Part shown: one piece after another, positions 15,766 to 42,529 of the stretch
How positions within the stretch are numbered: position 1 is the stretch's first letter
Layout of the letters: the number at the start of each line of letters is the position of its first letter
From: Candidatus Uhrbacteria bacterium
Lineage (GTDB): Bacteria > Patescibacteriota > Patescibacteriia > UBA9934 > GWF2-40-263
Reading direction: 5' to 3'
DNA: 64,000 bases
NCBI GenBank assembly: GCA_037131775.1
Contig: JBAXQK010000003.1
Span: 76,439-140,438, forward strand
Notes under the pieces: model-generated
Told to the model about the DNA's origin: nothing
The model's database searches: none
What the model saw: the letters and a program-made list of their open reading frames with translations, nothing else
Made by a program: the position numbers and the translations under genes

Positions 15766-15794
15766 TTGACATATTCCCGCGTCATTGCTACACT
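15766..15794 (+). promoter_or_regulatory. sigma70-type promoter of rpmE-prfA (TTGACA-17-TACACT), with overlapping palindrome ATGTCA-N6-TGACAT (15755-15772)
   Basis: TTGACA 15766-15771, 17-nt spacer, TACACT 15789-15794. Confidence 0.6.
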
Positions 15795-15819
15795 TCCGCT
15801 CGTTATTCCCCCACCTCAT

Positions 15820-16104
15820 ATGAAGAAAACAATTCACCCACAATACTTCCCGAAAGCGAAGATTTCCTGCGCCTGCGGGGCCAAGTACGAGATCGGCTCG
15901 ACGGTTCCGGAAATCGCGGTGGAATTGTGCGCCGCCTGCCACCCGTTCTACACGGGCAAGCAGAAGATCATCGACACGGCACGCCGCGTCGAGAAGTTCG
16001 GCGATAAGCTGACCAAGGTCGTTGCCGGGGCAAAGGTTGCCAAGAAGGCCAAGACCGAGGCGCGCACCGCCAAAAAGAAGGAAAAGGCCGTCAAAGCATC
16101 CTAG
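15820..16104 (+). CDS. rpmE: 50S ribosomal protein L31 (Zn-ribbon form) with Lys/Ala-rich C-terminal tail
   Basis: [11 protein letters not shown]...CACGAKYE...[10 protein letters not shown]. Consensus promoter upstream. Confidence 0.88.
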
Positions 16105-17192: not shown

Positions 17193-17867
17193 ATGCAGGC
17201 GGTCATCCTCGCGGCTGGAAAAGGGTTGCGCCTGCGTCCCATCACGGAATCGGTTCCCAAGGCGCTGGTGGACGTGTGCGGCACGCCGCTTCTTTTTCAC
17301 ATTCTGAATTCCCTGCCGTCGACGGTGACCGAGATCTTCGTCGTCGTTGGCTATCTCAGCGAGCAGATCCGCGCGGCGATCGGGGACGCGTTCGATGGGA
17401 AGACGGTCCGCTACGTCACGCAGGAACCGCTCGACGGGACCGGGAGCGCGCTGCGACTTTTGAAGGATGAGCTGCGTGAGAAATTTCTCGTCGTGAACGG
17501 AGATGACATGTACGGAAAAGACGATCTCGAACGTCTCGCACGACACGACCTCGCGGTCCTCGTCGCGCCGACGGAAGACGAGACGGGATCGACTGCGATG
17601 ATCGACGCGGCCGGACGGTTCGTCGGAATCCGAAACGACGCGATCGCGACCGCGCGCTCCCGCGTCTGCGGCGCATACGTCCTCGACAAAACGTTCTTCG
17701 ACGAGCCGCTCGCGACCGTGAACGTTCACGACAAAGTCGAGTACAGCCTCCCGCACACGATCGTCGCCATGGCGCGCGCCCATGCGATCGCGACGGAAGT
17801 TGCGACGCACTGGCAGCCGGTCGGCACGCACGAGGAACTGGCGAGAGTCCGAGCGACCTGTGCATAA
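17193..17867 (+). CDS. sugar-phosphate nucleotidyltransferase (NTP-transferase fold, 224 aa)
   Basis: MQAVILAAGKGLRLRPITESVPKALV... G-x-G-x-R-L motif. Starts 1 nt after the prfA stop. Confidence 0.75.
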   Translation: MQAVILAAGKGLRLRPITESVPKALVDVCGTPLLFHILNSLPSTVTEIFVVVGYLSEQIRAAIGDAFDGKTVRYVTQEPLDGTGSALRLLKDELREKFLVVNGDDMYGKDDLERLARHDLAVLVAPTEDETGSTAMIDAAGRFVGIRNDAIATARSRVCGAYVLDKTFFDEPLATVNVHDKVEYSLPHTIVAMARAHAIATEVATHWQPVGTHEELARVRATCA

Positions 17868-17875
17868 CTTCTTTG

Positions 17876-17899
17876 AAAAGTCCTTGACCGGACTTTTTT
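17876..17899 (+). terminator. terminator after NTP-transferase gene; loop doubles as a -35 box
   Basis: AAAAGUCC uugacc GGACUUUU + UU. Confidence 0.55.
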
Positions 17900-17912
17900 A
17901 AGTCGCTATATT
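17884..17912 (+). promoter_or_regulatory. near-consensus promoter TTGACC-17-TATATT driving the ORF-free region
   Basis: -35 at 17884-17889 is the terminator loop; -10 at 17907-17912. Confidence 0.55.
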
Positions 17913-17918
17913 GAATGA

Positions 17919-18450
17919 ACCGCTAGGCACGAGCGTAAGTTGAGATGGACGCAAGTCCGACCCAGCCCCAGCGACGCCATGCGATAGACGGAGAAGCAGG
18001 CCACGGTGCAAACCGTCGTGCGACTCCCTCGGGCCGTTCATCCCATTTGCATCGTACGCATTCCTGGCATAGCCACGCATCCAATCGACGCAAGTCGAGA
18101 CGGAACGCGGTTGTCCCCTCGGAACTTTGAGACGCTTGCGCCTCGAATACGGTCGGTGAGGATCATCGGTAACCAGTCCTCCAGCAGGAATCAACGAGAA
18201 GAACTGTCGCGCCTCCGGAGCAATCTGGAACAAGCCGTCCCAATGGACAAAGCCGAAAGCACGCTGTCGACCTCACCGTCGAGAGAAGCCTGAAAAATTC
18301 GCCGCCGGCGAATGCCACGTCTAAAAGACAAGCAGCTTGCAGCCGCAGCACTCACTCGTCGAAGACCAACGCGCCCACAGCGCCGCGATCACCATCTGGA
18401 CGGACTCCCCCTTCCCCCTACGTTGTGAGCTTGCTCCAACGTCTTTTTTT
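17919..18450 (+). ncRNA. candidate non-coding RNA locus (identity unknown)
   Basis: About 530 nt with no protein-like ORF on either strand. Preceded by TTGACC-17-TATATT and a terminator, and followed by a hairpin plus T7. Internal palindromes, e.g. attcgccgccggcgaat. Confidence 0.4.
18421..18450 (+). terminator. terminator closing the ORF-free region just upstream of prmC
   Basis: cgttgtgagcttgctccaacg (stems cgttg/caacg and gagc/gctc), then tcttttttt. Confidence 0.6.
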
Positions 18451-18468
18451 GTGTAAGAATGCATCCGT

Positions 18469-19383
18469 ATGATGGTGATGGAAGCATTGAAGTGGGCGAA
18501 CGAGACCCTGAAGCGGGGCGTGGACGGATCTGGGCTGGATTCGCCGATGCTGGACGCGGAGGTTCTTTTGGCCGCGTCGCTCGACGTGAACAAGGCGTGG
18601 CTGTTCACGCACCTCGACCGCGAGCTCAAGTCGCACGAGAACGACAAGTTCCGCGCGTTCGTAAAGCGACGGTCCACGGGCGAGCCGGTCGCGTACGTCA
18701 TCGGATACCGCGAGTTCTACAAGCGCCGCTTCGCCGTCAACCGCCACGTCCTCATCCCGCGTCCCGCGACCGAGATTCTCGTCGAGGCCGCCCTCCGTGT
18801 TGCCACCCAGCTCCCAAATACAAACGACCAAGAACAAACTACCTTGTTCTCCGATATTGGTACTGGCTCCGGCGCAATCGCGGTTACCCTCGCCGCGGAG
18901 TCCAGGGCACACGTCCTCGCGACCGACATGAGCAAAGAGGCGCTCGCCGTTGCCAAGTCGAACGCGGTCGCGCACAAGGTCGACGAGCTCGTCGATTTCC
19001 GCCATGGCAACCTCGTCGAGCCGGTCGTGAAGATCTTCGCCTCGCTCGGCAAGCAGTCGCCGTACCATCACCTGATCGTCTGCGCCAATCTCCCGTACCT
19101 CACCCAGCACCAGGTAGATGCCGCCCAGCGCGAGGTCCGCGACTTCGAGCCGCACGAGGCGCTCATCGCTGGCCAGGACGGGCTCGACGACTACTGGAAC
19201 CTCATCCGACTTCTGAAAAAGAACCGCTCCGTCCTCCCCGAGCGCGTCACGATCCTTCTCGAGATCGACCCGTCGCAGAACGCGCGGATCGTCGAGCTGA
19301 TCCGGCACGACTTCCCGCACGCGGAGCCGGCGATTACGAAGGATTTGGAAGGGTTTGATAGGGTCGTGACGGCGGAGATCTAA
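18469..19383 (+). CDS. prmC: release factor glutamine N5-methyltransferase
   Basis: 304 aa; SAM motif DIGTGSGAI; NPPY-variant CANLPYL. Confidence 0.85.
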   Translation: MMVMEALKWANETLKRGVDGSGLDSPMLDAEVLLAASLDVNKAWLFTHLDRELKSHENDKFRAFVKRRSTGEPVAYVIGYREFYKRRFAVNRHVLIPRPATEILVEAALRVATQLPNTNDQEQTTLFSDIGTGSGAIAVTLAAESRAHVLATDMSKEALAVAKSNAVAHKVDELVDFRHGNLVEPVVKIFASLGKQSPYHHLIVCANLPYLTQHQVDAAQREVRDFEPHEALIAGQDGLDDYWNLIRLLKKNRSVLPERVTILLEIDPSQNARIVELIRHDFPHAEPAITKDLEGFDRVVTAEI

Positions 19384-19425: not shown

Positions 19426-19477
19426 AAAAAACCGCTCAACATACCTCGCAGCTGCGAGGTATGTTGAGCGGTTTTTT
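19426..19477. terminator. bidirectional terminator, perfect 20-bp palindrome flanked by A6/T6
   Basis: aaaaaa CCGCTCAACATACCTCGCAG|CTGCGAGGTATGTTGAGCGG tttttt. Confidence 0.85.
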
Positions 19478-40249: not shown

Positions 40250-40987
40250 ATGACCTCCGTCCCAAACCTTCTGCGCGCGTCCTTTCAGCTGTACCGAACC
40301 CACGCGAAGCTCTTTGTCGGATACGTCTCCTGGCTCCTGCTCTCGTACGCCGCGATCGTGCTTGTGACGCTCATTCCAAACGAGGGGGTCCGCATGGGCC
40401 TCGGCCTTGCCGTCGAGCTCGCCGACGGGATGCTCTGGCTCTTCATCGGGGTGATCATGATCGTCCTGACACACCAGCTCGGGAATGGCAAGGAAATCGA
40501 CACGAACGTCGTTCCCCTGTATGCCCTTTCCGCCCTCGGGTCCTTCGCCTGGGTCGGACTCCTTCAGGCGCTCACGGTGGCAGGCGGTTTTCTCCTGCTT
40601 GTCATCCCGGGGTTGATTTTCCTCGTCTGGTTCGGCTTTGCCCAACAGGCGCTGCTCCTGGACGGAAAGAGGGGCCTCGACGCGCTGTCGGCCAGCCGCG
40701 ACCTCGCGAAAGGGCGTTTCTTCGTGGCCGCGCTCTACCAGCTCGGCGGCCCGGTTCTCGTCGGGATCGCCTACCTCGTCGTCCTCTCCCTCGCCTATGT
40801 CGCCCTGTCCGCCCTCACGCACACGCCGATCGAGGACATCTTCGGCGACACTCCCCCGCTCTGGGCCGACATGCTCGGCACGATCGGAAACATCTTCCTC
40901 CTTCCGATGTTGTCGATCTATGGGGTGATGGCATACAAGGAGATGAAGACGAGCGTCCCCGCAAAAACAGAACCGGCAAATTCGTAA
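40250..40987 (+). CDS. polytopic membrane protein, unknown (paralogue 2)
   Basis: MTSVPNLLRASFQLYRTHAKLF... Same architecture as 39309..40178. Confidence 0.6.
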   Translation: MTSVPNLLRASFQLYRTHAKLFVGYVSWLLLSYAAIVLVTLIPNEGVRMGLGLAVELADGMLWLFIGVIMIVLTHQLGNGKEIDTNVVPLYALSALGSFAWVGLLQALTVAGGFLLLVIPGLIFLVWFGFAQQALLLDGKRGLDALSASRDLAKGRFFVAALYQLGGPVLVGIAYLVVLSLAYVALSALTHTPIEDIFGDTPPLWADMLGTIGNIFLLPMLSIYGVMAYKEMKTSVPAKTEPANS

Positions 40988-41056
40988 CGTTCGTTGCAAT
41001 TCGTGTCATACGCAATTTAGTAACCGTATTCGTTATTCGCAACCCCGCTTTTTCCT

Positions 41057-42529
41057 ATGCTCGTCCCCGTCATCGGCCTTGAGATCCACCTCCAGCTGAA
41101 AACCAAGACCAAGATGTTCTGCGCCTGCTCGGCCCACGAGGCGGCGGCGCCGAATGCGAACGTTTGCGCCATCTGCACCGGCCAGCCCGGCACCCTGCCC
41201 GTCCCGAACGAGCAGGCGGTTCGCTTTGGCATCCGCATGGGTCTCGCGCTCAACTGCGCCATCGCGCCGCACTCCAAGTTCGACCGCAAGCACTACTTCT
41301 ATCCCGACCTTCCGAAGGCCTACCAGATCTCGCAGTACGACCTGCCGATCGCCGAGAAGGGGTTCGTCATGGTCGGATCGCACCGCGTCGGGATCACGCG
41401 CGCGCACCTCGAGGAGGACGCGGCGAAGAACCTGCATGGCGCGGACGGAAAGACGTACGTCGACTTCAACCGCGCGGGAACGCCGCTCATCGAGATGGTC
41501 ACCGATCCGGATTTCGCGTCGCCGGAGGAGGCGAAGGCATTTTTACAGGACCTGCGGCTGATGGCGCGCTACCTTGGCGTCTCCGACGCGGACATGGAGA
41601 AGGGGCAGATGCGCTGCGACGCGAACGTGTCGCTTCGCGAGGTCGACGACGCCGGAAATATCGTCGGGCCGAAGTTTCACCCGAAGACCGAGATCAAGAA
41701 CATCAACTCGTTCCGCAACGTCGAGCGCGCGCTCCAGTTCGAGCTCAAGCGCCAGGCCGACCTCTGGGCCGCCGGCTCTCCCCCGTCCGTCACCACGACG
41801 CGCGGATGGGACGACGCGACGCAGGGGACGAAGGAGCAGCGCGTGAAGGAGGCCGAGGGCGACTATCGGTATTTCCCGGAACCGGATATCCCGGTGCTCG
41901 AGCTGTCGAAGATCGCCGACGAGGAGCGCGCCCGGATGCCGGAGTTACCGGCGGCTCGACGAGCGCGGTTCGTCGACGAGTACGGCTTGAAGGCCGACGA
42001 CGCGAAGCAGATCTGCGAAGACCCGGCGCTGTCGGAATTTACCGAGCACGTCTTCTCGGAGCTTGGCGAGTGGACGAAGGCGAATGGCGGCGCGACGGAA
42101 AAACAAAAGACGGCGAACCTGGTCGCCGGATGGCTGCTGTCCAAGCTTGGCGGACTTCTGCTCGAACGAAACGTCGACGTCGGCTCCATGAAGATCGACG
42201 CGGAAAACTTCGCGGAGTTCATTTCCCTGCTGGCCTCGAATAAGCTCTCCTCATCCGCGGGCATGACGGTGCTGACCGAGATGCTCGAGTCCGGCGCGGA
42301 CCCGTCCGGCGTGATGGAGGCAAAGCGGTTGGGGAACATCGAGGACGCGTCCGTGATCGCCGAGATCGTCGACCGCGTGCTCGGCAACAATCCGGAGATC
42401 GTCGAACGTTACAAGGCCGGAAAGAAGGAGCTTATCCAGGTGCTCGTCGGCCAGGTCATGAAGGAAACGGAGGGCGCGGTGGACGCGAAGATCGCGAGAA
42501 ACATGCTGCTCGTGAAGCTTGAATCGTAA
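41057..42529 (+). CDS. gatB: Asp/Glu-tRNA amidotransferase subunit B
   Basis: MLVPVIGLEIHLQLKTKTKMFCACS...; 490 aa. Confidence 0.93.
   Translation: MLVPVIGLEIHLQLKTKTKMFCACSAHEAAAPNANVCAICTGQPGTLPVPNEQAVRFGIRMGLALNCAIAPHSKFDRKHYFYPDLPKAYQISQYDLPIAEKGFVMVGSHRVGITRAHLEEDAAKNLHGADGKTYVDFNRAGTPLIEMVTDPDFASPEEAKAFLQDLRLMARYLGVSDADMEKGQMRCDANVSLREVDDAGNIVGPKFHPKTEIKNINSFRNVERALQFELKRQADLWAAGSPPSVTTTRGWDDATQGTKEQRVKEAEGDYRYFPEPDIPVLELSKIADEERARMPELPAARRARFVDEYGLKADDAKQICEDPALSEFTEHVFSELGEWTKANGGATEKQKTANLVAGWLLSKLGGLLLERNVDVGSMKIDAENFAEFISLLASNKLSSSAGMTVLTEMLESGADPSGVMEAKRLGNIEDASVIAEIVDRVLGNNPEIVERYKAGKKELIQVLVGQVMKETEGAVDAKIARNMLLVKLES

Follow-up and report, generated by a model that had tools for sequence, protein, structure and literature searches.

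The 64-kb window analyzed here (64,000 nucleotides (nt) of contig JBAXQK010000003.1) comes from a member of Candidatus Uhrbacteria, within the candidate phyla radiation (CPR, or Patescibacteria), a placement that is based on the homologs of its prmC gene. In this window, the genes rpmE, prfA and a gene for a nucleoside triphosphate (NTP)-transferase are followed, after a gap of about 600 nt (17867 to 18469/18472), by prmC. The gap harbors a conserved, non-coding element with multiple helices that is flanked by conserved promoter-like and terminator signals. It is very probable that this element, at positions 17919-18450, is a genuine gene for a structured RNA, which is predicted to be transcribed as a free molecule of about 530 nt. 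The region had been singled out in a reading of the sequence alone as a candidate novel non-coding RNA of this size, bracketed by a promoter and a terminator, and the comparative analysis supports that proposal. The element represents a previously undescribed family of large structured RNAs in a subclade of Uhrbacteria, whereas the kind to which it belongs, the large structured bacterial non-coding RNAs, is already known.

An element conserved between the NTP-transferase gene and prmC

To trace the element beyond the window, we compared the contigs of eleven prmC relatives. The arrangement rpmE-prfA-NTP-transferase, a gene-free gap of 650-840 nt and prmC recurs in eight of the eleven, with the element in the same place (prmC identity: L081, 92%; L082, 87%; L083, 89%; L084, 67%; L086, 63%; L087, 66%; L088, 62%; L096, 67%). 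In two other loci (L089, 63%, and L097, 59%), the NTP-transferase gene overlaps prmC and the gap is absent, and in L085 (64%), prfA lies directly beside prmC. Because L089 and L097 retain the enzyme gene without the RNA, the element and the NTP-transferase gene can occur independently. In a neighbor-joining tree of prmC (a single gene, without support values), these three loci nest among the element-bearing ones, suggesting that the element was present ancestrally and was subsequently lost or relocated at least once.

An nhmmer profile of the first eight elements detects the later-fetched L096 (E = 6e-30), gives no match in the L085, L089 and L097 loci, and reveals no further copy, either in the window or in 96 loci totaling 1.07 Mb. 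Loci L001-L080, the listed matches of a prmC alignment that picked up the universal methyltransferase motifs, come mostly from unrelated phyla and serve only as a negative background. A covariance model of the 3' core (R1) recovers L081-L084 strongly and L088 weakly (15 bits), in the right place, and misses L086 and L087; this model, although specific, is too narrowly tied to the window group and yields nothing in the more distant Uhrbacteria and Patescibacteria loci L001-L004, L009, L036, L040 and L049. A search of metagenome contigs with a pattern combining the promoter and the 5' end returned six unrelated AT-rich promoters and no homologs. The blocks that are common to the deepest divergences are GCGAUAGA, UCGGGCCGA, UCGGUAA, GUCCUCC and ACGGACUCCCC(UU), and the 3' core holds invariant blocks of 35 nt.

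The element is non-coding. As the sequence-only reading had maintained, the roughly 600 nt between the NTP-transferase gene and prmC contain no credible open reading frame (ORF): on both strands, the translations are rich in Arg, Ser and Pro and match no Pfam family, and the frames shift in phase and position among the relatives. Among the four closest sequences, the variable columns are distributed over the three phases as 73/69/64, compared to 40/27/130 in the adjacent prmC, and the internal indels are mostly of 1 nt. The idea that one or more small protein genes were missed by the gene callers is hardly credible against these data; it draws on stop-free stretches of 60-187 codons, which are as expected at 57% GC and differ in frame and place between genomes, and on one gene call each in L087 and L084, whereas the substitutions lack a 3-nt periodicity and 1-nt indels break the frames between close relatives. 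The two public gene calls on the RNA gene (L087:4387-4950, 187 amino acids, and L084:4613-4714, 33 amino acids) are spurious; the longer one begins at the conserved 5' end and is of low complexity, Arg/Ser/Pro-rich and without a Pfam match. Thus, some public assemblies wrongly annotate the region as protein-coding, and the RNA is probably labeled a "hypothetical protein" in some databases.

The boundaries of the element are marked by signals that are shared by all nine copies, the window included. Each of the nine combines a -35 box TTGAC[CG], a spacer of exactly 17 nt, a -10 box TAnnnT and the trinucleotide ACC 6-7 nt downstream, where transcription would be expected to start; in the window, the predicted 5' end is the A of ACCGC, about 7 nt past the -10 box. 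The promoter-like site of the window scores 10 of 12, with two such sites in 4.5 kb against 0.9 in shuffled sequences. Its -35 box forms the loop of an upstream hairpin that, together with the T-run, probably terminates transcription of the NTP-transferase gene; the same design, with the -35 box in a hairpin loop (GGCCTTGACGGGCCTTTTTT and similar), is found in L081-L084, L087, L088 and L096. At the opposite end, a terminator hairpin with a T-run is present in nine of nine homologs, and in the window the T-run ends 18 nt upstream of the prmC ATG. The sequence-only reading had pointed to both of these arrangements, namely a terminator-type hairpin with TTGACC in the loop followed after 17 nt by TATATT, and a closing hairpin with seven T residues; they were indeed seen, at 17876-17912 and 18420-18450, respectively, and the closing hairpin covaries. 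A simple terminator scan did not list the latter, because its stem is interrupted by a bulge. Measured between these signals, the nine predicted RNAs are 532-701 nt long. That the conserved 5' ATGAACC might pair with GUUCAU segments inside the element was considered and dropped, the complement not being conserved; given the position of the -10 box, the ATGA of this motif is more likely a promoter discriminator, with the transcript beginning at the A of ACC.

Secondary structure and its comparative support

The structure was modeled with RNAalifold on four close sequences and refined by comparison with the diverged members; the resulting parts are listed in Table 1. The H1 arm is followed by the short conserved junction and by H2; in L088 and L084, by our reading, only one GNRA hairpin of the arm is left. 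In H2, four of the seven pairs are altered on both sides (GUCAGA/UCUGAC, GACAGC/GCUGUC, GAUCGC/GCGAUC and GAUGGAG/CUCCAUC), and the same holds for four of the nine pairs of H4, the helix that closes the variable domain II. Helices H5, H6 and H6b close the conserved 3' domain (H5-H13, about 230 nt). Of these, H6 covaries (CCGG/UCGG, CUGA/UCAG), and H5 changes from GUCC/GGAC to GUUC/GAAC in L086 (by reading), while H12 carries a conserved G.G mismatch. In the model, the 3' strand GGACUCCC pairs with two 5' segments, GGG and AGUCC, which lie on either side of domain II. Single-stranded sequence follows the 3' domain, and the motif CCCCUU(C/A)C is retained in all nine homologs just ahead of the terminator. 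The window copy contains at least six GNRA tetraloops (four GCAA, one GUAA and one GAAA). The palindrome ATTCGCC-GCC-GGCGAAT, which the sequence-only reading had placed near 18322, does exist, as hairpin H13, but is located at 18297-18313. Two further hairpins, GUCC-CAAU-GGAC (18239-18250) and GUCU-AAA-AGAC (18319-18329), were left out of the model as not clearly kept in L081 and L083.

Table 1. Features of the rpmE-prmC region of the window (window coordinates; helices as modeled)
Feature	Position	Strand	Description and basis
rpmE	15766-16104		Upstream of prfA
prfA	ends 17191		Window gene
NTP-transferase gene	17193-17867		Sugar-1-phosphate nucleotidylyltransferase; Pfam NTP_transferase match
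Upstream hairpin	17876-17897, with T-run to 17899	+	AAAAGUCC-UUGACC-GGACUUUU; sequence
Sigma-70-like promoter (predicted)	17884-17912	+	-35 TTGACC 17884-17889, 17-nt spacer, -10 TATATT 17907-17912
RNA gene, about 532 nt (very probable)	17919-18450	+	Promoter-to-terminator conservation in nine loci, no codon periodicity, covariation
H1 arm	17922-17982	+	GCUAGGC/GCCAUGC closes branched arm with GNRA hairpins (GGAC-GCAA-GUCC); RNAalifold
Junction GAUA	between H1 arm and H2	+	Conserved
H2	17987-18030 (17987-17993 with 18024-18030)	+	GACGGAG/CUCCCUC, stem capped by GCAA hairpin
H3	18031-18033 with 18407-18409	+	GGG/CCC, proposed long-range pairing, invariant; RNAalifold
H4	18034-18042 with 18161-18169	+	CCGUUCAUC/GAUCAUCGG, closes domain II
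Domain II	18034-18169	+	Variable, multi-hairpin, about 120 nt; includes CGAC-GCAA-GUCG and GCG-CUUG-CGC
Junction UAACCA and 5' strands of H5/H6/H6b	18170-18189	+	GUCC 18176-18179, CCAG 18181-18184, GGA 18187-18189
3' core domain	18192-18361	+	H7 ACGAG/CUCGU, H8, H9 CCGGA-GCAA-UCUGG, H10, H12, H13 AUUCGCC-GCC-GGCGAAU
H11 hairpin, then 3' strands of H6b/H6/H5/H3	18371-18409	+	GCGC-CCACA-GCGC; H6 CUGG 18396-18399, H5 GGAC 18402-18405, H3 CCC 18407-18409
C/U-rich single-stranded tail	18410-18419	+	CCUUCCCCCU; alignments
Intrinsic terminator (predicted)	18420-18450 (hairpin 18420-18442, T7 18444-18450)	+	ACGUUG-U-GAGC-UU-GCUC-CAACGU + T7; sequence
Extended -10-like motif	18450-18460 (region 18450-18474, outside the RNA)	+	TGTGTAAGAAT; sequence only
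prmC	18469/18472-19383		Start after the gene-free gap

The covariation that the sequence-only reading had proposed to look for was found in three comparisons. First, in an alignment of the 3' core made by MAFFT from sequence only (five sequences) and combined with the RNAalifold structure, 96.6% of the cells are paired and 11 of the 41 pairs are changed on both sides, a result that none of 500 shuffles reached; in slid controls, 29-44% of the cells were paired and 0-3 such pairs were found. Second, the strands of 15 helices from seven sequences, with their order checked, were joined with constant spacers into a hand-stitched alignment of 84 pairs, in which 90.2% of the cells are paired (79.1 +/- 0.8 after shuffling), 41 of the 84 pairs are changed on both sides (15.1 +/- 2.6 after shuffling) and the covariation score is 0.287 (0.111 after shuffling). 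None of 500 shuffles reached any of these measures, and the slid controls gave 28-39% paired cells and 3-5 pairs. All six pairs of the outer terminator stem are altered on both sides in this alignment, whereas H3, H5 and the inner terminator stem are constant in the seven sequences and contribute no covariation; in L086 and L096, the inner stem changes from GAGC/GCUC to GACC/GGUC. L086, which is alignable only in part (H4, H5, H6 and the terminator), was excluded from the statistics. Third, L096, which was fetched after the model had been fixed and is thus out of sample, pairs in 66 of 75 cells, 20 of which differ from the window on both sides, for example in H4 (CUGACAG/CUGUCAG), H8 (GCGUCG/CGACGC), H11 (UCAC/GUGA) and the inner terminator stem T2 (GACC/GGUC).

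Neighboring genes and the start of prmC

The NTP-transferase, an enzyme of the sugar-nucleotide type, has no evident connection with RNA; its best NCBIfam matches, to the GlmU N-terminal, AglF and MurU types, are all below the cut-off. The base composition of the gap had been described as more balanced than that of the flanking coding DNA; a difference indeed exists but is only small (GC content of 0.56-0.60 versus 0.60-0.66 in the flanks).

The region between the RNA and prmC is informative with regard to the expression of the latter gene. A motif of the form TGTGnTAnnAT directly follows the terminator in the window, L086, L087, L088 and L096 and is located 8-12 nt ahead of the prmC ATG (8 nt in the window; in the relatives, at about L086:4962-4985, L087:4968-4990, L088:4975-5000 and L096:1655-1686). 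Because this extended -10-like motif so closely precedes the ATG, prmC is probably transcribed from a separate promoter into a leaderless or nearly leaderless mRNA. In L081-L084, an AT-rich palindromic insert of 130-170 nt separates the RNA terminator from prmC. Taken together, the motif and the inserts disfavor a role of the RNA as a prmC leader.

The insert itself (L081:4840-5000, L082:4869-5000, L083:4832-5000 and L084:4863-5000) is a long imperfect palindrome with the ends TTGCGAAT...ATTCGCAACC. It is missing from the RNA-prmC junction of the window, where a copy of its right half is found elsewhere, at 40975-41045, ending about 10 nt before the start of an ORF (ATG at 41057). The insert looks like a miniature inverted-repeat transposable element (MITE) or a repetitive extragenic palindromic (REP)-like element and may supply a promoter.

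Downstream of prmC (19428-19475), a perfect 20-bp hairpin, AAAACCGCUCAACAUACCUCGC-AGCU-GCGAGGUAUGUUGAGCGGUUUU, with A- and T-runs on its flanks, forms a strong bidirectional terminator-like structure. The interval between prmC and the DUF3048 gene also differs among the relatives, L082 and L088 having additional small ORFs there. Weak, sub-threshold matches to CyaR_RyeE where the DUF3048 and L25 genes meet (L088:7550-7632, minus strand, 33.9 bits; L087:7806-7894, minus strand, 26.2 bits; cut-off 47) probably are due to chance, each reflecting a hairpin inside or beside coding sequence.

Possible functions and relationship to known RNAs

Provided that the element is a real structured RNA gene, its product would probably be a folded RNA, or the RNA moiety of a ribonucleoprotein (RNP), that acts in trans. 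The interpretation that we favor, with moderate confidence, is that of an independent gene of about 530 nt whose product functions in trans as a compact RNA with a tertiary structure; its mode of action is most likely neither coding, nor antisense pairing by itself, nor that of a prmC leader. The argument for a compact trans-acting RNA comes from the size of the element, its many GNRA tetraloops, the conserved junctions and the non-canonical G.G pair; GNRA tetraloops, conserved junctions and non-canonical pairs typically occur in RNAs whose folding relies on tertiary contacts. Action in trans as a compactly folded RNA, be it a scaffold, a particle or a ribozyme-like RNA, is suggested with much less certainty than the transcription of the element. 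Under this interpretation, transcription would start at the element's own sigma-70-type promoter, with the -35 box inside the terminator loop of the upstream gene, and would stop at the intrinsic terminator just ahead of prmC, which would then use the extended -10 promoter. The fold, as shown by the comparative analysis, has several domains: the H1 arm and the GNRA-capped H2 lead into a junction where GGACUCCC is predicted to pair with GGG and AGUCC; this junction encloses the variable domain II (H4) and the conserved 3' domain, and the C/U-rich tail and the terminator follow. In trans, the product might then serve as a scaffold for proteins, assemble into particles or resemble a ribozyme, like the large "ornate" bacterial RNAs OLE, ROOL, GOLLD and raiA.

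Several observations weigh against this interpretation. The single-sequence fold is no more stable than those of shuffled sequences (z = -1.3 for the plus strand and 0.0 for the minus strand), so that the evidence for structure is comparative rather than thermodynamic. The diverged sequences were aligned by hand, helix by helix, and the count of 41 doubly changed pairs, which comes from an alignment fitted by eye to the structure, is inflated. Helices H3 and H5 are almost invariant, and the pairing at the junction is a prediction; the promoter, the transcription start and the terminator are likewise proposed from sequence patterns. About 40% of the columns vary among the four closest relatives, close to the value for the third codon positions of prmC (about 43%), and constraint is therefore blockwise and structural rather than general. 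The comparison is based on nine sequences from a single clade and a single locus. Finally, the element is missing at this locus from three relatives nested in the clade; it is thus dispensable or relocatable, and an essential housekeeping role is less likely.

A bolder version of the trans-acting hypothesis, to which we assign a rather small chance, is that the element founds a new, CPR-specific class of large tertiary-structured RNAs (ribozyme, RNP core or self-assembling particle), perhaps linked to translation termination; such a link is suggested by the long evolutionary stay of the element inside the rpmE-prfA-prmC cluster.

Slightly less probable, and on the whole unlikely, is a regulator that acts by base-pairing in trans, that is, a long small RNA (sRNA) resembling RNAIII of Staphylococcus aureus, in which the C/U-rich segments (the tail CCUUCCCCCU and CCUCC at 18178-18182) would pair with purine-rich ribosome-binding sites. 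The invariable presence of the tail motif before the terminator, the element's own promoter and terminator, and a size close to the 514 nt of RNAIII are compatible with such a role. Most of the C-rich GGACUCCC, however, is predicted to be paired internally, in H5 and H3, and CCUCC falls within H5/H6; moreover, the helices, GNRA loops and junctions far exceed what an sRNA needs to present a seed. The element also differs from RNAIII in the lack of an embedded ORF comparable to hld, and the two RNAs are not homologous.

Quite improbable is a long cis-regulatory leader of prmC, with the terminator as a conditional attenuator and the fold sensing a ligand, a protein such as RF1 or PrmC, or a tRNA. 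The terminator does lie next to the prmC start, in an operon, rpmE-prfA-...-prmC, that is devoted to translation termination, and, like the T-box, ribosomal-protein and riboswitch leaders, the element immediately precedes a gene related to translation and has a terminator hairpin at its 3' end. Against this stand the promoter-like motif straight after the T-run in the window and four relatives, the tolerance of L081-L084 for unrelated palindromic DNA between the terminator and prmC, and the expression of prmC from an overlapping operon arrangement in relatives that lack the element. In addition, the RNAalifold consensus fold contains no antiterminator pairing with the 5' strand of the terminator, and at 530-700 nt the element is three to five times longer than the known leaders.

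Very improbable, in turn, is non-functional DNA, either a pseudogene in decay or what is left of an inserted or selfish element, with hairpins retained by chance. The patchy presence in the clade, the near-synonymous level of substitution among close relatives and the insignificant z-score would fit this possibility, which the sequence-only reading had also raised. It is contradicted by the preservation of the promoter geometry, the start and the terminator in nine of nine lineages, down to 62% prmC identity, by dozens of compensatory double changes and by the invariant blocks of the 3' core; the relatives thus display conservation with compensatory changes rather than decay. Neither a conserved protein gene, which that reading had considered as well, nor any similarity to a Pfam family was detected, and traits of a MITE or another mobile element are lacking, each locus containing a single copy with no flanking or terminal repeats seen.

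Still less probable is a highly divergent housekeeping RNA, namely RNase P RNA, transfer-messenger RNA (tmRNA), signal recognition particle (SRP) RNA or 6S RNA, that escaped the covariance models. CPR bacteria often have divergent RNAs, and the element shares with class A RNase P RNA (RF00010) the size range, the multi-domain fold, long-range helices, one of which contains an AGUCC segment, and GNRA loops. Nevertheless, in agreement with the sequence-only reading, which had recognized none of these RNAs, the searches were negative. Rfam 15 (4,227 covariance models) gives no gathering-level match anywhere in the window; at E<=10, the 801 nt at 17750-18550 yield only a glutamine riboswitch match (14.7 bits against a cut-off of 35, E = 4.1), which is noise, and at E<=5 nothing is found inside the homologous elements of L084, L086, L087 and L088. 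ARAGORN predicts no tRNA or tmRNA gene in the whole window, and neither a tRNA-like domain nor a tag reading frame was detected. A possible identity with RNase P RNA, which was prompted by the AGUCC...GGACU combination, was rejected: RF00010 and RF00011 do not match even at E<=10, there is no P1, and the AGUCC/GGACU helix lacks a bulged U. Class A RNase P RNA is defined by P1, formed by the 5' and 3' termini, and by P4, with its bulged U and conserved flanking blocks. In the element, by contrast, both ends are unpaired with each other, so that there is no P1 or acceptor-like stem: the 5' end enters the local H1 arm directly and the 3' end is an intrinsic terminator. The conserved blocks CR-I to CR-V are absent, as are the RNase P consensus sequences for which the first reading had looked, and the element itself is missing at the locus in the three nested relatives.

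CPR organisms have tiny genomes and are thought to be symbionts, and to our knowledge almost nothing of their RNA biology has been characterized experimentally. A literature search on CPR, Uhrbacteria, Patescibacteria or Parcubacteria in combination with non-coding RNA, RNase P or structured RNA found nothing relevant, and in particular no report of a large, many-helix RNA of this kind in the candidate phyla radiation. The retention in a reduced genome of an RNA gene of 530-700 nt with a strong predicted promoter suggests a real function. The general importance of the element is limited by its narrow range, a single subclade of Uhrbacteria, and by its loss in some members; nonetheless, it offers metatranscriptomics, Infernal searches of CPR genomes and structural studies a defined target.

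Few bacterial RNAs exceed about 400 nt and also have many covarying helices; these few include the rRNAs, RNase P RNA, tmRNA, group I and II introns, OLE, GOLLD, ROOL and HEARO, and such RNAs historically have proved to be ribozymes, RNP cores or self-assembling particles. The covariance models of OLE (RF01071), ROOL, GOLLD, the raiA motif and HEARO, all included in Rfam 15, do not match the element, and BLAST against phage genomes shows no similarity. The element differs from these RNAs in its provenance, Uhrbacteria within the CPR as opposed to Firmicutes or phages, and in its setting: it has no associated protein genes, in contrast to OLE with oapA and others, and it is not located beside tRNAs or in prophages. 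Its architecture, with a 3' strand that joins two 5' segments across an inserted domain, is peculiar to it. The likeness to these RNAs is one of kind, not of family: a stand-alone gene in the size range of about 500-800 nt, rich in covarying helices, with several GNRA tetraloops and conserved junctions, a narrow phylogenetic range, and no evident coding potential or regulatory target.

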